Below are positions 24,476 to 36,036 of a DNA stretch of 64,000 bases, in pieces (the stretch's first letter is position 1; each line of letters opens with the position of its first letter). The stretch lies in contig CAWBKB010000003.1 of the NCBI GenBank assembly GCA_963789265.1, positions 64,001-128,000 of the forward strand. Direction: 5' to 3'. Below the pieces are notes generated by a model, which was not told the origin of the DNA, made no database searches, and saw only the letters and a program-made list of their open reading frames with translations. The stretch is from an uncultured delta proteobacterium (GTDB taxonomy: Bacteria > Desulfobacterota > Desulfomonilia > Desulfomonilales > Desulfomonilaceae). Position numbers and translations under genes: made by a program.

Positions 24476-25042
24476 ATGACGACAAGGTCCCACAGTTGCG
24501 TAGGATGTGGTGAACCCCCTAGCAGGGGGGTGAACCGCATCTGTCGCGCATCGGTCATCGAGAGACATCTCGGCAAGGTTTTTCGCGACCGATGCGGTTC
24601 CCCCGCGGTCGCGGGGTTCACCACATCCTACGCACTGATCGGTTTGATCGTGCTAATTGCATTCGTCGCGATTTCTCTGCTCGCCGACCTGCCCTTACAG
24701 GCAGCCTCCACTCCGACTACCGCTCCTCAGAAGAAGGTGATGGGGGTCTCGACTCCGGCACCTCCTTCGCCTATCGCCCCTTATGTGGCCCAGGCATATT
24801 CCATAGTAGGGCCGAGCTACGTATCAACGGTCACATCACAGTCCATTACTCTGTCCACGGGCCGGAACGACCTCGGCATCGATCTCACAGGCAAGCATGT
24901 TGTTGTGATAGATCAGGCTTCCAAACCGCTTACACTGAGTGCCGTACAAAAAGGCACGAGGGTGTACGTATGCCGCAAGGCCAATAATGTAGTTGTCATG
25001 GTGCTTCCAGCCGTCACAACACAAGGAGGAGCAAAGAAATGA
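24476..25042 (+). CDS. Hypothetical exported protein, first gene of pilus cluster
   Basis: Strong RBS AAGGAGG; G|FTT followed by hydrophobic helix; ATGA overlap with pilY1. Confidence 0.75.
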   Translation: MTTRSHSCVGCGEPPSRGVNRICRASVIERHLGKVFRDRCGSPAVAGFTTSYALIGLIVLIAFVAISLLADLPLQAASTPTTAPQKKVMGVSTPAPPSPIAPYVAQAYSIVGPSYVSTVTSQSITLSTGRNDLGIDLTGKHVVVIDQASKPLTLSAVQKGTRVYVCRKANNVVVMVLPAVTTQGGAKK

Positions 25043-28000
25043 TGCCGCGTCCACTAATCATCCTGACTGCGTTGCTCACCTTGTTGGGGCTCGTGTTGCT
25101 CGCATCCCCCTGCGGGGCTACCCCTTACAATGCTTGAAGCCTTCCCGCTGTCGCCGGTGTGGCGACCAAACCGAATGTGATGATAGTGATGGACTATTCC
25201 GGAAGCATGCAGTTCCGGGCGCACTATAAGAGTGCATCGCAATTTTGGAACGGTTATTATTCTAACAGCAATGTCGCCTATGGTTACGACGGCACGGAAG
25301 GCACCAAGACAGACGGCGAGCCGTACGATCCTACGCAGACCTACTACGGGCTTTTCCAATCTAACGTATACTATACGTACGACGCGGCGAACAAATACTG
25401 GGTTCCCGCGGCTACCCAACCGGTGACGGCTTATAGTTTCACAGCTCCCAGCCGGGACGGCGGTCCTGTGTCCGCGTGGTCGTCGGGTCAAGCTTATGCC
25501 GTGAATGCCCTGGTCGGCGATGGCGGTAAATCTTATATGTGTACTACTGCCCACACATCTGCTTCAACCAATGAACCGGGAACAGGCTCCAATTGGCCAA
25601 CTTACTGGATCTTAGTAGGATCGGGAACCGAGTTGATACAGTACACAGCAACCGGCCATAACTTCCAGGTGGGGCAGCTCGTTGAATTTCAGGGGCTGAC
25701 GAGTCACACTGGAATGAATGGAAATGCCTACTATGTGACTGCGGTTTCAGGCGACACATTCACGGTGGCATTTCCCTGGAACGGAAACCCGGATTCTGCC
25801 ACCGGATCTGCGCAAAGGCGTATTTCAGGGACCCTTCTGACAACTTACGGCGGAACCGCGCAGACACCCGGCCTCAGCGGCAATATTCTCAACTGTGCCA
25901 CCGCCAGCAGAATTGATTGTTCGCTGCAAGCCCTGATAGGCGGCCCTGGCTCGTGTGATTCCAATTATTGCTACATCAGGGGGCAAGGAGAGAGGAGCTA
26001 TCTGCGAGAATCCTCCAACATTCAGGCGGAGTTCTACGTCCGTCCTGCGTCTTCCGATTCTTCCGCGACTTACCCCGACGACTATAATACCGGTACATAT
26101 ACCACGAAGACGACCTACCTGTCGCTAAGCGGCCGGTATGCCGGGAACGTAACTACCGCGGATCCCGCTTTCGGCTCTGCCTGTACTCATCAGACTTGTA
26201 CTTCACAGCACTGCACTCATCGGTACTGCGATGATGCGGACTGCACCGACTATCCATGCACTCATCAGAGCTGCACTCACTGGACGTGCACCGGCAAGAA
26301 TTGTACTGACACTTTATGCCAGCAAGGCTCCTACAAGTGCAGCCATCGCAACTGCGACACCTACCAGTGCGACCGCTGGGGACCGTGCGATGCATGCAAC
26401 AACTGGCAGTGCGACCAGTGGCAATGCGACGCCTACACTTGCGACCAGTGGTCCGGCGGGAACTATTATGAAGCGTACACATTCACTACCGGGAGCACGG
26501 CCACCCACATAGATCTGGCGCTCACCGGGACTTGGACAGGAGGGACCCAGCAAAACCCAACGCAATCGTACCTGGCGCTCTTTAACAATACGAACTTTTC
26601 AGGAAATTCCCTGGCGTCGGACACGGGCTCTACCGCCAATATATCGTATAACCTTGCTGCGAACACAACCTACTATGTGGTCGTGGCAGCCAACAGTGAC
26701 GGCCAGACAGGGTCTTACACGCTGGCCTCCAGCCAGGAACTGGTGGGTTATGATCCTCGTAACCCCAGCAATCCGAGTGTCTCGCCCGGGACCTTTAGCG
26801 GTCAAAGATTACTTCCGACCGGCTTTGCCGTCCCCTTAGGGTCCATTCCCCAGGCCCAGGTAAAAATCAGGGTAGACGTCAACGCACGAACCGGCATTAT
26901 CCAGCAGACTTTCAGCCAGATCAGGTACGGCTTTATGTACTTCAATTCCAGTTCAGGCAATGTCGGCAAAATCCTGGTCGGCTGCGATAACACAAATCTT
27001 GATACTCTTCTGACCGCGTTTACCGGAATTTATCCGTACAACGGCACGCCCACGGGAGAAGCACTGGAGGCGGCCGAGGACTATTTCGCCCAGTCGACGA
27101 GCCACTCAGGAGACTACTCGAGCAATTCCAATTACATAAACTTAGGGAAGTCAGTAGATCCTTACTACCAGCCGAATGTAAGCGGCAACCTCACAAGTGT
27201 GCCGTGCCGCCAGAGTTATGTTGTTTTGATCTCGGACGGTGGATGGAACGGAAATGTCGACCCCATCAAGCCCGCACGGGGGATGCACGCCTTTGACCTG
27301 AGGAGCGATCTTACCGGTAATCAGTCGGTAAATCTGTACAGCATTTTCGCATTCAGCACCAGTGTGTGCGGGGCTCGCAGTATGCAGGGTGTGGCGATGT
27401 TCGGCGGATTCGCGGACGACACATCCAACTGCGGGGGTACCGGAGGCTCTAGCAACACATGGCCGTACCCTTATACCAGTTATCCATCTGCGTGCGAAGA
27501 CACCAGCATCACTTGCTCGCAGTGCGATGCTTGTAGTTGTTGTCCTCCCAATTGTAGCTCATGTCTTCAGGGAAGCCTATGTATGAATCGGTACCAACCG
27601 AAGTGTGATCCAACCGTGCCCCTGCCCTCAGGCCACTCGTACGATACCTGCTGCAAGGAGTGGGATGCGAACTGGGACAAATATACGTCAGGGGATAATT
27701 TGGATAAGGGGATCCCGGACAATTATTTCGAGTGTTCGCAGGGACAGGATCTTCAGGCAGCCCTCCTGAAAGTCCTCACAGGAGCGATAGTGAAGAATGC
27801 CACGGCCAGCGCGGTTGCCACGGTGGCCCAGCAAACGCAAGAAGGGGATATTATCATCCGCGGCCTGTTTCATGCCGCGGACCCGGATACAGTAGGAAGG
27901 AACCTTTGGCGCGGCCATTTGGAGGCATATTGGCCTTATCTCGATCAAAGCACCATGACATGGCATTATGATTTTGAGAAGAATCCCTGTTTTGAAATCA

Positions 28001-30639
28001 CCGACCCCAACAAGAACTGCTGGGATGCCGCTGAAATATTGCAGAAGCGAGACACAAACAATAGGACCATATATAGTTGGGATCCCACCACAAAAACAAC
28101 AGTGACTATTCCGCAAGTGCCACGTGATACGGGTTCGCCGTTCCCTCCAACCAATCCGCCCTGGAGTTCGTCCCTGACTGCGACGTGGTCCGGCACGCTG
28201 GGTTTGAGCGGCTCTCTGACTGCGCCGGATTTGATCGATTGGGTCCGAGGGGATGACAACATTGTCGACAGCACCTTCGCCTTTAGGGACCGTTCGAATT
28301 GGAGACTGGGAGACATAATCTATTCGACACCGGTAGTAGTGGGGACCCCCGGCGTGGGCATGATTTCGACGAAAGATCCCAACCGGGACGAGTTTTATGC
28401 TTACCGGAACCAAAGCACTGGGTGCCCCTGCACTTCCGCCACTGATACCACTTCTGCATCCTGCCAGAACTGCGTGTACTACAGAGATAAGGTAATCTAC
28501 GTCGGGGCTAACGACGGAATGATCCATGCCTTCCTCATGGCTCACTGGGACGCTACGCGGCAAAAGTGGCTGACCGAACCGGGCAATGACCCTACCAAGG
28601 GCGTGAACGGGGATCCTACCAAAGGACAATATCCCGGCATAGGCACGGAATTGTGGGCCTATACACCTAGCAACCTCTTAACCGAACTTCAGTACCTTGC
28701 GCCCGAAACCTACGGCAACACCTCCTCGTCGGGTGGTTGCGTACACAGAACAATGGTCGACCTGGCGCCCCAATCGTGGGAGGTTTACATCAAGTCACCC
28801 AACTGCCCCATAGGTAGCCCCGGGGGAAGGTGCTGGCGTACTGTCATACTCGGCGGCGAGAGGGGCGGAGGCGATGTCTATTTTGCGATTGACGTCACAG
28901 ACCCTTACAATCCCGTAGTGTTGTGGGAATATTCATTGCTCAAGAACAGGATAATTTATGACACGGGCGGCACACGTTCTCTCACCAACTGCGCAAACAG
29001 TGCTACCGATGGAAATTGCCAGTCAGCTAACTTGAGCACAGCCTACCCGTTTCTCGCTGACCCCACGGTATATGAGAAGTTGAAGATCCTCCCCTGCACC
29101 TGGTCACGGCCGGCCGTGGGGCGACTTAAGATACCGACCTTACTGACTCTTCATACAGGGGATCCCGCGGCCACGGGGACCGCTCCCACGGATGTTACAC
29201 CTTTCGACTTCGACGGCGAGCAGTCCCGAGACGTTGCGTTCATCGGGGGCGGAATCAGGATCTTTCAGGATGACTCGACAATCAACAAGGATCCCTCGGT
29301 GGCCGTGACGACAGAGCAGCTCTCCGCAGCCCAGAGGTTCGATCTATTCCGACCGGACTTTTTGGCCATAGACATCGAGACGGGCACAAACCTGTTCAGG
29401 TATTACTGGCCGCTTATCCAAAATCAAACCGTATTCCAAAATCTGAGTGCGACGAAGTTTTACACTCTCTTTCCGGTGGTAAAATACGGCTCCAATTACA
29501 TTCCCTACTCCATGTCCGACCCACTGGCGCTCGACGTGCTGAACACTTCCGGCTCAACCAGCCTCGGTGTGGGGGATGACGGGTATATTGATACTGTGTA
29601 TGTTGGCGATTTGTTGGGGAACTTTTACGGGCTCAAGTTTAATTTCGCCGAACAGGTCCAAGACCACACCACAGGAAATCTTGTGGCCAACAACAGTAAT
29701 TTTGGCATCAGGGTCGACTGGTGGCAAACCAAGTCGACCTGGGAGGGAAGTCCGGCGACAAACACCAATATGGATTATTATCGGGGCTTGCGGCAACCGA
29801 TCACCGTGCCCCCGGTGGCCAGTTTTGACAGTAACATGTCCAACGGATACTTTCTCCATGTCATTTTCGGGGCAGGCAAATTCGAGGATGTCCCGAACAG
29901 CCAGAACGACGACATGGTTGACATATCGAGGACGTCCATCTACAACCTCAAAGACTTGGTCACTCCGCCGACTGATAACTTCTTCAGTACCCGCGCGCAG
30001 CCGCTCGGGAATTTCAAGATAGAGATAAATCCCAGGTGCCCGCAGTCGCCATACGGCTCGTGCCATACAATTCGGGATTGGCCGAAAAGCGGCGATTCCG
30101 CGTGTGTGTGGGTAAAGGACGACGGCACCAAAGATTGCGGGGAAAATACGTGCCACGAGCCGGCAAACCCGTCAGACGCGTGTGCCGATCCCTGCTGGAA
30201 CTGTATCTTCGATCTCATGTCGCCAACGGACATGACAAAGCCAGGGGAACGTGTGGTGCGAAAGGCACTCATAGCAGGAGGCCTGGTTTTTATCGTTACA
30301 ACATCGCCGCCTTCTACTCAGTGTGAATCGCAAGGCACGAGCAAACTTTATGTGCTGAGCTATGATTGTGGACCCATTCCCGGGGGGCAGGATATATTTG
30401 ATTCCAGCATAACAGCGATCGGGCTCAAGACGGGCAATGTCAACGGGTATGATCCGAGAGGTTGGGTGGTTGATCTTGGCACGGGCGTGGCAAGTAATCC
30501 TGTCCTTGATTCCTCCGGTACTCACGTAATAATTCAAATGAGCACGGGACAAATCCCTACGGATAATGGTGGTGGCCCAGGTCTTAGTGTTAAGTTGCCC
30601 CAAAAAGTTATGCAGCCTGAGGGTTGGCGGGAAAGGTAG
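25039..30639 (+). CDS. pilY1: PilY1-type pilus tip adhesin, 1866 codons with in-frame TGA at codon 33 (candidate Sec)
   Basis: Signal peptide; KPNVMIVMDYSGSM vWA start, TPTGEAL, VLISDG; beta-propeller motifs LGDIIYSTP, YVGANDGMIHAF, ELWAY.P, DTVYVGDLLGN, GERVV. Confidence 0.9.
25150..25166 (+). promoter_or_regulatory. Candidate bacterial SECIS hairpin
   Basis: GTCGCC-GGTGT-GGCGAC starting 12 nt after in-frame TGA (25135-25137). Confidence 0.6.
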
Positions 30640-30725
30640 GGTGCACATTCATCCCAAGCATCTACTTTAAAGAAGGCAGATGCAGAGACGAACGCAGCTC
30701 CCTACAAACTCCGTTTCCCTCCCGG

Positions 30726-30878
30726 GACGGTAGCGGCCACCAAGACCCGGACCAGGCCGACTATGACGAGAATCGGTCGGGGGAGTTGCTATCAATGGGG
30801 ATTACAGTAATACGTTTTTGGAATCATGAGGTTAATGATAACATAGATAGTGTGTTGGCAGCGATTAGAGAGGCCCTC
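30726..30878 (+). pseudogene. DUF559 (Vsr-like) endonuclease 3' remnant
   Basis: DGSGH..YDENR..L..MGITVIRFWNHEV..NIDSVL..I; N-terminal half missing. Confidence 0.8.
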
Positions 30879-30965
30879 ACCCTTGCCCTCTCCCAGAGGG
30901 AGAGGGGACCAGACGGCGGTTCTCACCTGACTCCCTCTCCCTCTGGGAGAGGGCCGGGGTGAGGG
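30874..30965. repeat. CCCTCTCCC-GGGAGAGGG REP doublet
   Basis: CCCTCACCCTTGCCCTCTCCCAGAGGGAGAGGG and inverted copy; same family at 19330-19423. Confidence 0.85.
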
Positions 30966-31097: not shown

Positions 31098-31754
31098 ATG
31101 CTTGCTGTTCGACCTTGGTTTCTGGTTTTGGCGATCGTTTTGGTCTGCGCCGGCATTCCTGCCGCACTTGCCCGGGGTGAGGCTCCGGAAGAGCACAAGG
31201 CTGTCAAACCTACCGTGGTCAAGGTCAGAATTGAACCCGCGCAGCCCCGGACGGGAGACAAGGTTAAGATATATTTCAACCTGGGGGGAGGGGCTGAGCG
31301 TGCTGAAGTAAAATGGTCCTTAAACGGCAAAGAGGTCCAGCTTTCGGATTATATTGAAGCATTCAAGTACGTGGAGTTGAACAAGACGCTCAAGGCCGAT
31401 GACAAAGTTATTGCTGTCATAACTCCGTTCGATGCAAACGGGGTTGCCGGGGCTAAGGTTGTCCGGCGGATTGTTTGCGCGAGCGCTCCACCCGAACTGA
31501 AAGTTGTCGATCAGCGGATCGAAGCGGGAGTGTACAAGGCAACCGTGGAAGCCAAGGACCCTCAAGGTGGGCACGTTTCATTGACCCTGGAAAAGGGACC
31601 GCCGGGAATGACGATGGATCCTAAGGGGAACATTACCTGGCCCTTAGGCAGTGATATCGCAGGCAGATTTCCCGTGAAGATCGAGGCAAAGACCGAAAAG
31701 AGCGGCCAAGCAATTCTCTCATTCGACGTGGGCATAAAGAGAGGAAACCAATGA
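31098..31754 (+). CDS. Secreted protein with two Ig-like domains
   Basis: Signal peptide, IEP..P..GD, W..NG, DPQG..LEKGPPGMTMD..G.ITW; RBS AGGAG. Confidence 0.8.
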   Translation: MLAVRPWFLVLAIVLVCAGIPAALARGEAPEEHKAVKPTVVKVRIEPAQPRTGDKVKIYFNLGGGAERAEVKWSLNGKEVQLSDYIEAFKYVELNKTLKADDKVIAVITPFDANGVAGAKVVRRIVCASAPPELKVVDQRIEAGVYKATVEAKDPQGGHVSLTLEKGPPGMTMDPKGNITWPLGSDIAGRFPVKIEAKTEKSGQAILSFDVGIKRGNQ

Positions 31755-33163
31755 TCCCGGTCTGCCGCATAGGTGCTTTCTTGCCACCCTCCTCCAAACA
31801 CTCCCGTAGAGGATGGGAAACCTGTGAAGGCGCGCCTGAAACCCTCCCCTACCTCTCGCTCCCAGGTGGAATAGGCGCTAACTTGATGTCAGATTCATTG
31901 CATTTGAGGAGACCAGACGGCCGGAGGCCATCAAAGTCCCCCATTTCTAAAGGGAGATTTAGAGGGATTTTCAATGGGTTATCCCCAAACCCCCCCTGGC
32001 CCCCCTTTATGAAGGGGGGGGACCCTTTTAGACGCGGGGTCAGGTTGGCGCCTGTGGTCCCAGGTGGAGAAGACAGACTGAGGGGCGATCCGCGGTCAAG
32101 GCATAGGGCATGCTTCAACTCTAATTGCTACCGCTCCCGCGGGTTCACCTTCATTGAATTGCTCGTCGTGGTAACTATTATAACGATCTTTGCAGCAATC
32201 GCGTTGCCGACGGGGTTGCACTGGCTCACCGATTATCGGTTAACGCAGGCAGTCAGATCCTTATCCAACGCGGTTCTTATGGCCAGGATGCGCGGCATCG
32301 AGAATAGGTCGGTCATCACGATAACCACAAGTGTGACGTCAACCGACAGCCCTTTCACCGCGACTTGTCCGGGTATCATATTTACTACAAATGTAGACCA
32401 CGGGCTCACCGGGCCCAATCCGGTCGTGACCAACTACCTCGTAGATCCCACTACCCTCAGTCCTGCTCCCCCGCCGCTCTCGCCACGCTATTGGCCTGTC
32501 TCTAATTGTAAATGTGTCAAGGACCTTGGCAGCCCCCCATCCACCACGCCGACGCCGGGTGATACGGTCATGTTTTCCGGGTTAGATCACACTAAATCAA
32601 TGAATGGCGCCGAGTTCGAGGTCTTGACCATTCCCTCTTCAACTCAGTTCGCTGTGCAGCACACTTATAACGTGATCCTGGGAGACCTTCCAAGTGGCGA
32701 TACCAAGGGTACGGTGCGGAACCTGATTGCGCCCGGCAGGCTGAGGATAGTGCCCGCGACTGCTGTATTGACCACCCCCACGAACGACAACCAGGAGAAC
32801 TTTTCGTCTTCCGGGTTTACGATCAAAGAAGAGGCATCCACGATAGTTTTCAGGTACAACACAGACCAATTCCAGATTACCTTTTACGCCGGTAACCCTC
32901 CTATTCCTTCCGACACCCCTACGCTGGATCCCTCGTCAACGGCATACAATTTTGCTGAAATCAGGTTTGACAACCGTGGATTTCCTAAATCAACTCTTGC
33001 ATATAACAGTTCTTCCGGCACTATGACTACCAATCCTATTTCCACCAATACCACTATCCTGATTGCTGAAAAGTTGACCGGATCAAAGCACCGGACCCCT
33101 CGGACAGTCCAGTATCTGGTCTCGCCGACCGGTAAGGTAAATACAACGGCCTGGGAGGAGTGA
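31751..33163 (+). CDS. FimT/GspH-like minor pilin with 131-aa leader
   Basis: G|FTFIELLVVVTI, A..L..ARMRG, I.FD.RG, VSPTGKV; ATGA overlap with upstream gene. Confidence 0.85.
   Translation: MIPVCRIGAFLPPSSKHSRRGWETCEGAPETLPYLSLPGGIGANLMSDSLHLRRPDGRRPSKSPISKGRFRGIFNGLSPNPPWPPFMKGGDPFRRGVRLAPVVPGGEDRLRGDPRSRHRACFNSNCYRSRGFTFIELLVVVTIITIFAAIALPTGLHWLTDYRLTQAVRSLSNAVLMARMRGIENRSVITITTSVTSTDSPFTATCPGIIFTTNVDHGLTGPNPVVTNYLVDPTTLSPAPPPLSPRYWPVSNCKCVKDLGSPPSTTPTPGDTVMFSGLDHTKSMNGAEFEVLTIPSSTQFAVQHTYNVILGDLPSGDTKGTVRNLIAPGRLRIVPATAVLTTPTNDNQENFSSSGFTIKEEASTIVFRYNTDQFQITFYAGNPPIPSDTPTLDPSSTAYNFAEIRFDNRGFPKSTLAYNSSSGTMTTNPISTNTTILIAEKLTGSKHRTPRTVQYLVSPTGKVNTTAWEE
31870..32056. mobile_element. MITE family B (degenerate copy) inside the prepilin leader
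   Basis: Ends ATAGGCGCTAACTTGA / TCAGGTTGGCGCCTGTG; flanking TCCCAGGTGG repeated at 31860 and 32058; interior is reverse-complement homolog of 39353-39530. Confidence 0.8.
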
Positions 33164-33634: not shown

Positions 33635-34642
33635 ATGAAGAATTCAAAAGGCTTCACACTGGTTGAAATGATGGTGGCGGCAGGGCTGCTGGCACTGGCC
33701 CTTGCGGGTGCAATGTCTTTTTTCATTTATCAGAGCCGGACTGGGGCGGATTCCAGCAAGTTTAAAACTGCGCGGCAAGACCTGACCCTGGCGCTCACGT
33801 TGATGAAGCGCGACATAACGCTGGCGGGATGCGGGGTTGCAGGCGATAAGACCCTTTCCCTGGTGCTAATTTCGAACTACGGAGTCGATAATGTGACAGG
33901 TGACACGCTTAACTCCACCGATAGCACGCAATGGAATGTCACTGACCTCCCGCGCCTGGTGTCGGATCCGGCGAGCGATCCGTACTTGCCGACAGGCACT
34001 ACATTCAAACCGGACAAAATCTTTGTCGAGTACGGCAATTTCTTGGACATGAATTTCGATATTAACGGAATCACTGATACTGATACGGTCTTCAAGTATT
34101 CTGCTTCGAAGGTCATAGGTGCATCTGACGTAAATTCTTTTATCTACGACATCTTCCCCATCGGCATGGATGTCTCGACCAATACCAAACCTCTGGGCGG
34201 GTTTATATGTAAAGATTGCGGAACCGGATCTGCGCCGAAAGGCGCGGAAGTCGACTGGGTGGCGACGGGGAGCAGGCCCAATGATAGCGTCACGAAGAGT
34301 TGGACCTTTAAGCTGAATACCGGCAAGAACCTCCACGGCACGGTTGCGCCGTCAATAGTGTACCGAATCGCCAAAGATACTAAACGCGAAACGTATGAGT
34401 TGCAAAGAAACGGCATTCGTATAGCGGGTGGGGATCCTGAGATGGAAGTCTATGGTCTCACGGTGAAAGATCAAAGTTCCGGAAATTCGCTGCGATTCAC
34501 CGTCAGGATCGATTATCAGGTCAAGCTCACGGGTTCACAGGCAGAATTGAACGCGCACGGACCGGGCAAGAAGACGTGGCATAAGGCTTGGATCACTTTT
34601 GAGGCAGATCCTCGAACCCTTGTGCTGAACGCAGGTTCCTAA
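33635..34642 (+). CDS. pilW: PilW-like minor pilin
   Basis: G|FTLVEMMVA, MKRDITLAG. Confidence 0.82.
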   Translation: MKNSKGFTLVEMMVAAGLLALALAGAMSFFIYQSRTGADSSKFKTARQDLTLALTLMKRDITLAGCGVAGDKTLSLVLISNYGVDNVTGDTLNSTDSTQWNVTDLPRLVSDPASDPYLPTGTTFKPDKIFVEYGNFLDMNFDINGITDTDTVFKYSASKVIGASDVNSFIYDIFPIGMDVSTNTKPLGGFICKDCGTGSAPKGAEVDWVATGSRPNDSVTKSWTFKLNTGKNLHGTVAPSIVYRIAKDTKRETYELQRNGIRIAGGDPEMEVYGLTVKDQSSGNSLRFTVRIDYQVKLTGSQAELNAHGPGKKTWHKAWITFEADPRTLVLNAGS

Positions 34643-34900: not shown

Positions 34901-35473
34901 ATGAAAAAGTTGTTACAAACGCGATTGAGACCGACGAACAGTGACCGGGGGAACGCAGTGGCCATAGTGCTGCTGGTCCTGGCAGTCGTGAGCCTTGTCG
35001 GAGTGGGGATGCTGACTCAGTCCAGGATAGACCTCAAGTTCGCAACCTCTTACAAGAGCCACGCCACAGCATTCAATCTAGCCGACGGTGCCGCGTCGCT
35101 GGCTTATACCACAGTGTCCTTCTCCTTCGCCCCGCCGTACGACGGCCACTCTGCGCCGCAATTGCTAAACACGCATTATTCAGATCCTCAATTTCCCACG
35201 ACGGCCGGCAATCCCACGGGAAGCCAGCTCAAGGACAGAGGCACCTATTGGCCCGTCATGATTTTCCAGGGGCCGATAACCGACCCGACGAAGATGCCCG
35301 GCTGGGGGTTTGTCGAAGATGGCCGTACGCTGGAATGTTGGATTGCTCAAGGGTGCGGGCGACGGCAGGACACTGCAGGTATAGCAGCAAACAACACCGA
35401 GGTGCGCGAGGGAAAACACCTCCCTTCCGAAACTTCCGTCCAGATAGCGACGCAGAAGTTAGCCCCGAAGTAG
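34901..35473 (+). CDS. pilX: PilX-like minor pilin
   Basis: RG|NAVAIVLLVL (no Glu5), AFNLADG. Confidence 0.8.
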   Translation: MKKLLQTRLRPTNSDRGNAVAIVLLVLAVVSLVGVGMLTQSRIDLKFATSYKSHATAFNLADGAASLAYTTVSFSFAPPYDGHSAPQLLNTHYSDPQFPTTAGNPTGSQLKDRGTYWPVMIFQGPITDPTKMPGWGFVEDGRTLECWIAQGCGRRQDTAGIAANNTEVREGKHLPSETSVQIATQKLAPK

Positions 35474-35580: not shown

Positions 35581-36036
35581 ATGAAGACATCCGCCCTCAC
35601 AATCTATCGGAGAAAACTACCCCATTGGCGACTTGCCGGGGCAATGTATTTCGTTACTTGGCGTCTTGGCGTGAACCAGCTCCCTCTCGGCCCCCAAGAA
35701 AGAACCATTGTGGAGACATCAATTAAACATTTCGAAGGCCGGCGTTATAGATTAAGGGCTTACGTGATAATGGACGATCATGTGCACGTTCTGGTTCTCC
35801 CTCTCGAAGGTTTTGCGCTTCAACGAATTGTTCACTCTTGGAAATCGTTTTCCGCCAAAGAGTTAGCAAAGGCCTCGGGAAGGATAAGCCCTATTTGGCA
35901 GCGAGAGTACTTGGATCGTATTGTAAGGGATCAGGAAGAACTGATGCAAAAGGCACAATACATTCATGATAATCCCATGAGAAGATGGCCATATTTGGCG
36001 AAATATCCGTGGATGGGATTTGGCTCTGATGTATGA
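35581..36036 (+). CDS. REP-associated tyrosine transposase (RAYT/TnpA-REP)
   Basis: LPHW..YFVT, YVIMDDHVH (HUH), WKSFS, IWQ.EY.DRIVRD, YI..NP; flanked by inverted REPs. Confidence 0.9.
   Translation: MKTSALTIYRRKLPHWRLAGAMYFVTWRLGVNQLPLGPQERTIVETSIKHFEGRRYRLRAYVIMDDHVHVLVLPLEGFALQRIVHSWKSFSAKELAKASGRISPIWQREYLDRIVRDQEELMQKAQYIHDNPMRRWPYLAKYPWMGFGSDV

Follow-up and report, generated by a model that had tools for sequence, protein, structure and literature searches.

A candidate selenocysteine codon in a PilY1-like gene of an uncultured Desulfomonilaceae bacterium

Does the TGA triplet at positions 25135-25137 stop translation, or does it encode an amino acid? The window, that is, the whole 64,000-nucleotide stretch of DNA analyzed here, comes from an uncultured delta proteobacterium of the family Desulfomonilaceae, a soil relative of sulfate reducers (GenBank assembly GCA_963789265.1, contig CAWBKB010000003.1). 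It contains a long gene for a protein resembling PilY1 of type IV pili (25039..30639; 1866 residues including residue 33, stop codon TAG), and the TGA is its codon 33. This gene and the features within it lie on the forward strand. An initial annotation of the DNA had proposed that the TGA is read as selenocysteine (Sec) with the help of a hairpin resembling a selenocysteine insertion sequence (SECIS). That interpretation is supported by our comparisons: the presence of the TGA, the Sec machinery of the genome, the Cys column in homologs and the sharing of the TGA by relatives all spoke for it. We put the probability that UGA codon 33 is decoded as Sec at roughly 0.87, on the strength of sequence comparisons. 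A Cys/TGA pairing and a stem-loop directly 3′ of the UGA are standard criteria for bacterial selenoproteins, according to PMC9312934. The locus displays a single in-frame UGA, a Sec/Cys pair, a 3′ stem-loop with a G in its loop, and purifying selection on both flanks, and the genome encodes the Sec machinery.

We analyzed the beginning of the gene. An ATG at 25039 is preceded, 9 nucleotides upstream, by the Shine-Dalgarno sequence AAGGAGG (25023..25029), and the surrounding sequence, AGGAGGAGCAA, is found at the same distance from the ATG in all five same-genus genomes. From this ATG the frame reads MMPRPLIILTALLTLLGLVLLASPCGATPYNA-TGA-SLPAVAGVATKPNVMIVMDYSGSM and continues into a PilY1-like open reading frame (ORF) of 1826 codons. 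The TGA is the sole in-frame stop ahead of the terminal TAG at 30637-30639. An upstream ORF on the same strand (24476..25042; 188 amino acids, one hydrophobic segment) ends in a TGA (25040-25042) that shares nucleotides with the ATG, and this ATGA overlap suggests that the two are translationally coupled. The 3′ end of the upstream ORF is conserved in four same-genus genomes; a family match was looked for with this ORF and none was found. Codons 1 to 27 (25039..25119) are predicted to encode a signal peptide, M1-A27, with the n-region MMPR, a hydrophobic core of 18 residues and the c-region SPCGA; both the signal peptide and its cleavage after A27 were assigned by eye. This stretch is in frame, with zero insertions or deletions, in five genomes and two metagenome contigs. 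The residues TPYNA separate it from the TGA, and it is part of the product only when the TGA is read through. A mechanical ORF list places the start of the 1826-residue ORF at GTG 25159, a codon that has no ribosome-binding site and sits within the hairpin at 25150-25166. All the coordinates proposed earlier for the start (ribosome-binding site, ATG, ATGA overlap and frame into the 1826-residue ORF) were correct, and GTG 25159 was rightly described as a poor start from which the product would lose its signal peptide.

Three further observations concern this 5′ region. A lipoprotein reading of Cys25 was dropped because that residue is Gly or Ala in three of five species and there is no lipobox. 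Besides the hairpin, a second nucleotide-invariant block, TTGTTGGGGCTCGTGTTGCTC (25081-25101, codons 15-21, in the signal peptide), is common to the five same-genus genomes; one metagenome contig, L161, alters codon 18 within it. RNAalifold paired the Shine-Dalgarno region (25020-25035) with codons 12-16, and in this model the pairing could sequester the ribosome-binding site.

We then asked what homologs carry at the position of codon 33. Hereafter, G000 is the window's genome, G001 to G004 are genomes of the same genus, L numbers are loci and P numbers are public proteins. The TGA occupies the same column in seven sequences, namely G000-G004, which represent five species of one Desulfomonilaceae genus, and metagenome contigs L161 and L162, which remain free of stops for 547 and 483 amino acids past the TGA. 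When 41 related genomes were searched in six frames with residues 1-400 (X in place of the TGA), G001-G004 gave the gene with a TGA, and genomes of other genera gave it free of stops. By tblastn, the TGA fell at exactly one column in G000-G004, and 11 homologs of other genera had a Cys in the motif Y/F-x-x-C-x-x-P; for one of these the Cys came into line only once a gap was moved. Scans of 70 genomes of the family and 122 of the class limited the TGA to G000-G004. Among 25 further loci from the family search, Cys was in register in 22 and displaced by a gap in 2, and one locus had Ser. In alignment A2 the column comprised 4 X and 20 Cys, Cys being present in all 20 non-Sec rows. A wide scan of species genomes and metagenome contigs yielded 158 loci, of which 132 had the MIDAS (metal ion-dependent adhesion site) anchor motif and the other 26 were left unclassified. 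The 132 loci comprised 116 with Cys (in register in 109, shifted by one residue in 3 and by two residues in 4), 6 with TGA and 10 with A, S, T or V. Library representatives with the motif numbered 83, with 70 Cys, 10 other residues and 3 truncated sequences. These homolog sets share genomes, and the counts are not independent.

Altogether, Cys is present at the residue-33 column in about 90% of homologs from several phyla. The Cys that is replaced lies directly before the first strand of the von Willebrand factor type A (vWA) domain, and its conservation extends over Desulfobacterota, Aquificota and further phyla; the Sec form was seen in a single clade, of genus level, among uncultured Desulfomonilaceae. 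The 'YCxxP' cysteine ahead of the vWA start, which the initial annotation had mentioned, is real, and in most homologs this Cys, not another residue, stands at exactly the TGA column. Nor is the TGA private to one strain, being common to seven sequences with an invariant hairpin. In a tree of 22 rows, from which G002, G003 and L163 were left out, the Sec and Cys forms were interleaved in one clade with support of 100/99.

At this position the Sec forms read A-U or P-U, and the Cys forms of that clade (L159, L160 and L163; P0003 and P0004) have a second, neighboring Cys, as CC or C-x-C ('YQCCS', 'YNCCFC', 'KACFC'). In these sequences a vicinal Cys pair might take the place of Sec. The public gene calls P0002, P0005, P0006 and P0007 begin just after the Sec/Cys column ('MPAVAG', 'VPSVAGVATK' or 'MDYSGSM'). 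Truncation of these calls is the probable reason, and P0005 and P0007 are possible additional Sec forms.

The genome contains the machinery to decode UGA as Sec. A tRNA-Sec was detected with 71.3 bits and was also identified by ARAGORN, as tRNA-SeC with anticodon TCA. selA, selB and selD scored 594, 386 and 360 bits, and all four components exceeded the curated cut-offs, which answers the question of whether selA, selB, selC and selD are present. selA was also found in all four other genomes of the genus with the TGA (G001-G004). Among the 48 tRNAs of the genome, the UCA anticodon was unique to tRNA-Sec and the anticodon of tRNA-Trp was CCA, indicating that TGA is not reassigned to Trp in this organism. 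selD has one in-frame TGA of its own and is thus of the Sec type.

One in-frame TGA followed by a hairpin was found in each of three other genes of G000: selD, an fdhA and a second Fdh-like gene (C7:193442-194362, minus strand; C1:2102890-2104890, minus strand; C4:138981-139739, plus strand), indicating that the organism has several selenoproteins. A few more TGAs lie in open read-through frames with a GGU-loop hairpin 16 to 20 nucleotides downstream, including those at C1:238481 (minus strand), C1:710767 (minus strand) and C7:369113 (plus strand) of G000. They are candidate selenoproteins or chance matches.

Next to codon 33, a hairpin is formed by GTCGCC (25150-25155), the loop GGTGT and GGCGAC (25161-25166). 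Its 6-bp stem starts 12 nucleotides after the TGA; the remaining six Sec forms have one G-C pair more, so that their stem is 7 bp long and begins 11 nucleotides past the TGA. The 17-nucleotide hairpin is identical in all seven Sec forms. Across five species, the four-fold degenerate sites of the hairpin (codons 38-43) were all invariant (6/6), compared with 7/18 elsewhere in codons 1-63. In four intact Sec forms the figures were 6/6 and 16/71 elsewhere in codons 1-270 (naive P of 1.3e-4), the next-longest invariant runs having a length of 2. We also determined how common such hairpins are in the genome. With a loose definition (6 or more perfect pairs, a loop of 3 to 7 nucleotides with a G in its first two positions, and a loop start 14 to 24 nucleotides after the TGA), 0.85% of the 209,638 TGA trinucleotides were followed by a SECIS-like hairpin. 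The exact geometry, namely a stem of at least 6 pairs and a 5-nucleotide GGTnn loop starting 18 nucleotides after the TGA, was found at 2 TGAs genome-wide. The SECIS of fdhA in the same genome likewise has a 5-nucleotide loop, GGUCU, that starts 18 nucleotides after the UGA, and the hairpins of selD and the second Fdh gene have 3-nucleotide G-rich loops at 20 and 23 nucleotides. The equivalent 19 nucleotides of 11 Cys homologs from other genera had folding energies of 0 to -6.0 kcal/mol, compared with -10.3 to -12.8 kcal/mol in the Sec forms. A search of Rfam with 24900-25400, at E values up to 10, returned no bacterial SECIS family and gave two chance-level matches only (CRISPR-DR36 and SpF10).

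We estimated the ratio of nonsynonymous to synonymous substitution rates (dN/dS) between the copies. Between G000 and G001 it was 0.164, 0.21 and 0.178 over 266, 188 and 1316 codons, with dS between 0.63 and 1.25, and between G000 and G004 it was 0.17 to 0.25. These values indicate that the gene is under purifying selection and was kept after the TGA arose, since the shared TGA predates the splits between G000, G001 and G004.

A number of observations weigh against decoding of codon 33 as Sec in a functional PilY1 protein. The closest Cys forms, L159, L160 and L163, keep a hairpin (-9.9, -14.0 and -11.1 kcal/mol), and it therefore does not separate Sec from Cys within the clade. Even so, they differ from the 17-nucleotide Sec hairpin, one by a stem pair changed from C-G to G-U and two by loops changed to GGCGC and GGGAU, which favors the Sec reading. 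The position, stem and loop of the hairpin were as first described, but its specificity to TGA forms did not hold. Four of the six stem pairs are dictated by the peptide V-A-G-x-A-T, and two rest on synonymous sites. RNAalifold recovered the hairpin from five sequences with zero compensatory changes, and no covariation can be demonstrated among the Sec forms because the hairpin is invariant there. Of the predicted Cys/TGA alternation with hairpin covariation, the alternation was confirmed, whereas the compensatory changes were absent among the Sec forms. Of the genus's seven genomes, two had no match to the N-terminal query, and the match of the protein to the PilY1 family PF05567 is weak, at 33 bits. 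No RNA run was found to contain 24700-26200. Lastly, frame changes occur in all four other same-genus copies, three in G001 and more in G002, G003 and G004, and the G003 copy may be a real pseudogene, because dnaE and selA, which served as controls, are intact in that genome.

The hairpin of the Cys forms may be a remnant of a Sec ancestor, or it may be older than Sec; both would fit the data. SECIS-like remnants after Cys codons are a described mark of Sec-to-Cys conversion (PMC1794560). The three frame changes of the G001 copy (C37, L041) all fall within residues 272-523. The G003 copy (C10, about 158900-164200, L043) has many frame changes and stops, with the TGA and the hairpin kept.

The broken frames would be compatible with an inherited nonsense mutation: a TGC or TGT of the genus ancestor would have become TGA, and the gene would now be either decaying or translated without a signal peptide from a start further on (GTG 25159, ATG 25180 or ATG 25189). 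The state of the G003 copy and the calls of the close relatives P0002, P0005, P0006 and P0007, which start just past the TGA column, would also agree with it. Against this, purifying selection persisted after the TGA (dN/dS of 0.16-0.25 at dS of 0.6-1.5), and the frame is open for 1833 codons here and for 483 to 547 codons in the two short-read metagenome contigs. In all seven sequences the 32 codons ahead of the TGA have remained in frame with their signal-peptide character and the Shine-Dalgarno sequence, and a product of GTG 25159 would lack an export signal. dnaE and selA are also broken in G002 and G004, so that some of the frame changes are assembly errors; both controls are intact in G001 and G003. 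We consider an inherited nonsense mutation improbable.

Alternatively, a near-cognate tRNA for Trp, Cys or Arg might read through the UGA without Sec, in a programmed or leaky manner aided by the hairpin, since a stable hairpin 3′ of a stop codon can promote read-through. This appears less likely still, as the organism has a full Sec system and reads UGA as Sec in fdhA and selD, the hairpin matches the fdhA SECIS in geometry and GGU loop, the column is that of a conserved Cys, the classic partner of Sec, and tRNA-Sec was the only suppressor tRNA among the 48 tRNAs. A sequencing or assembly error hiding a true TGC or TGT codon is very unlikely. Nothing direct was found in its favor, although indel errors of the long-read type exist in related assemblies; a change of TGC or TGT to TGA is a substitution, not an indel, and the TGA is present in five independently assembled genomes and two metagenome contigs. 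In addition, short-read contigs from two public runs, which may stem from the same sample as the window's assembly, span 25135-25137 and show the TGA. The first (24788-25332) has no difference from the window, and the second (25092-25329) has two, the sole one with a listed position being C>T at 25167, off the TGA. This outcome speaks against the possible misreading of the codon raised when it was first described.

If codon 33 is decoded as Sec, translation would begin at ATG 25039, coupled to that of the upstream ORF. At the UGA, the stem-loop 11 to 12 nucleotides downstream, with its GGUGU loop and fdhA-SECIS geometry, would recruit SelB-GTP-Sec-tRNA(Sec), Sec would be inserted and 1833 further codons would be translated. 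Cleavage of the signal peptide would leave Sec near the mature N terminus, just before the first vWA strand, and cleavage after A27 would put it at position +6 of the mature protein. Residue 33 would then be joined in a selenylsulfide, for which Cys1234 of the propeller is a possible partner. In the absence of selenium, translation would stop at codon 33 and no tip protein would be made; production of the pilus tip would thereby be coupled to selenium supply.

What kind of protein would carry this residue? The PilY1-like product has a split vWA domain, inserts resembling CBM5/12 and PPC domains, a Cys-rich repeat and 63 Cys in total. Residues 45-58 (PNVMIVMDYSGSMQ) contain the MIDAS motif D52-x-S54-x-S56 (D52-Y-S54-G-S56; 25192-25206). 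The best Pfam stretch of the PilY1 beta-propeller PF05567 covers residues 1513-1617 (29575..29889), at 33 bits (cut-off, 28.1) and an E value of 4e-8; the CBM5/12 match was below the Pfam threshold, and a search of NCBIfam with the protein gave no match. PF05567 is precomputed for 22 of 28 homologs among those listed, and one source names close full-length public homologs 'type IV pilus assembly protein PilY1'. We modeled residues 1-900 with AlphaFold2 from alignment A3 (23 rows). The mean predicted local distance difference test score was 76, but it was below 50 for residues 20-41, making the model uninformative around residue 33. Foldseek searches of the PDB returned domain-level matches only, to a PPC domain and to the vWA domains of factor B and CMG2 (the latter with a probability of 0.89-1.0 and E values of 7e-3 to 1.4e-2). 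In residues 388-478 (about 26200-26470) a Cys recurs every 5 to 7 residues (CTHQTC TSQHC THRYC DDADC ...); the length of this run varies among relatives, and AlphaFold2 modeled it as strands.

Three prepilin- or pseudopilin-like ORFs lie 1 to 4 kb downstream of pilY1 on the forward strand, with weak matches that leave them untyped as PilVWX or FimU. They encode a prepilin-type protein (31751..33163), a prepilin-type minor pilin- or pseudopilin-like protein with a weak likeness to GspJ/GspH (33635..34642), and a minor pseudopilin-like protein with a weak match to GspK (34901..35473). The true start of the first is probably later than called, because its N-terminal methylation motif is at ORF residue 128. 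Taken together, the propeller match, the names of homologs, the MIDAS/vWA features and the prepilin-type neighbors indicate that the assignment of gene 25039-30639 as PilY1-like, in the form of a long Cys-rich variant, holds. A DUF559 fragment directly follows the pilY1 stop (30624-30962), and a REP-associated tyrosine transposase gene is found behind the pilin-like genes (35581-36036; 81 bits against a cut-off of 80).

We searched the alignments for a bonding partner of residue 33. The candidate is Cys1234 in the C-terminal part (28738..28740, motif GGC-VHR), which showed weak covariation with the N-terminal position. The corresponding propeller Cys (Y-C-H motif) was missing in all eight full-length homologs without the N-terminal Cys and present in 16 of the 19 alignable homologs with it, rows P0122 and P0057 having been dropped from this count as not alignable there. 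The tree contains just three losses of the N-terminal Cys, and an independent-pairs test was powerless (2-3 pairs, p = 1). An earlier small alignment had indicated C1667/C1689 as the partner instead. Cys1234 is thus a weak lead. It is conceivable, if rather doubtful, that a Sec33-Cys1234 selenylsulfide forms a redox- or force-sensitive clasp between the vWA start and the propeller, making tip assembly selenium dependent and the protein a non-enzymatic, extracellular, structural selenoprotein. The sensitivity of the clasp would follow from the fact that an Se-S bond reduces and re-forms more easily than an S-S bond, and the selenium dependence from the end of translation at codon 33 without Sec.

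We compared the locus with known systems. FdhA/FdhF, represented in G000 by the copy on C1 (TGA at 2104506, minus strand), likewise has an in-frame UGA where homologs have Cys, with a stem-loop right after it whose 5-nucleotide, GGU-starting loop lies 18 nucleotides on, and presumably the same SelB serves both genes. The loops differ in sequence (GGUCU in fdhA and GGUGU here), and the PilY1-like hairpin shows no evident bulged U, unlike the SECIS of E. coli fdhF. FdhA is a molybdopterin redox enzyme, cytoplasmic or exported by Tat, whose active site contains Sec, whereas the PilY1-like protein is of a pilus-associated adhesin type with no known catalysis. With PilY1 of Pseudomonas aeruginosa, a type IV pilus tip-associated adhesin and mechanosensor, it shares an N-terminal vWA domain with a MIDAS, a C-terminal PF05567 propeller and minor-pilin-like neighbors and, provided that the TGA is read through, would share a signal peptide. 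The present protein is about 1.9 times longer, with its 63 Cys, large vWA inserts and Cys-rich repeat, and similarity is confined to the weak propeller match. The vWA cysteines Cys152 and Cys147 of P. aeruginosa PilY1 matter for surface sensing, as reported in PMC8806160; the recoded residue is the N-terminal Cys of a Y-x-x-C-x-x-P motif. Interleaved Sec and Cys forms and hairpin remnants after the Cys codon, as seen here, were also described for protein families by Zhang et al. in 2006, the examples there (PMC1794560) being FdhA and a HesB-like protein, whereas an exported adhesin is concerned here.

Full-text literature searches on PilY1 and selenocysteine and on type IV pili and selenoproteins retrieved no Sec-containing PilY1. 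The terms pilus, pili, PilY and von Willebrand do not occur in the main text of PMC13188914 (a 2026 review of the prokaryotic selenoproteome), PMC12013277 (deep-Sep) or PMC13326102 (BSepDB, whose family list in Table S2 was not covered), and selenocysteine does not occur in PMC13190605, a 2026 survey of myxobacterial PilY1 proteins. In the literature searched, then, no Sec-PilY1 is described, in keeping with the statement of the initial annotation. The PilY1-like Sec protein is a candidate for a new selenoprotein family, of the ordinary bacterial Sec type but in an unusual protein class.

The finding is limited in scope, because Sec forms came from a single genus-level clade of uncultured Desulfomonilaceae. 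Gene callers truncate PilY1-like Sec proteins at or after the TGA, with loss of the signal peptide, as at 25159 here and in P0005, P0006 and P0007. The occurrence of Sec and Cys forms in one clade offers a natural experiment on the role of the conserved N-terminal Cys of PilY1-like proteins. To our knowledge, the bacterial selenoproteins described so far are nearly all redox enzymes. If codon 33 is indeed decoded as proposed, selenium use would extend to surface attachment and pilus biology, by way of a Cys-rich, secreted pilus-tip adhesin that contains Sec.

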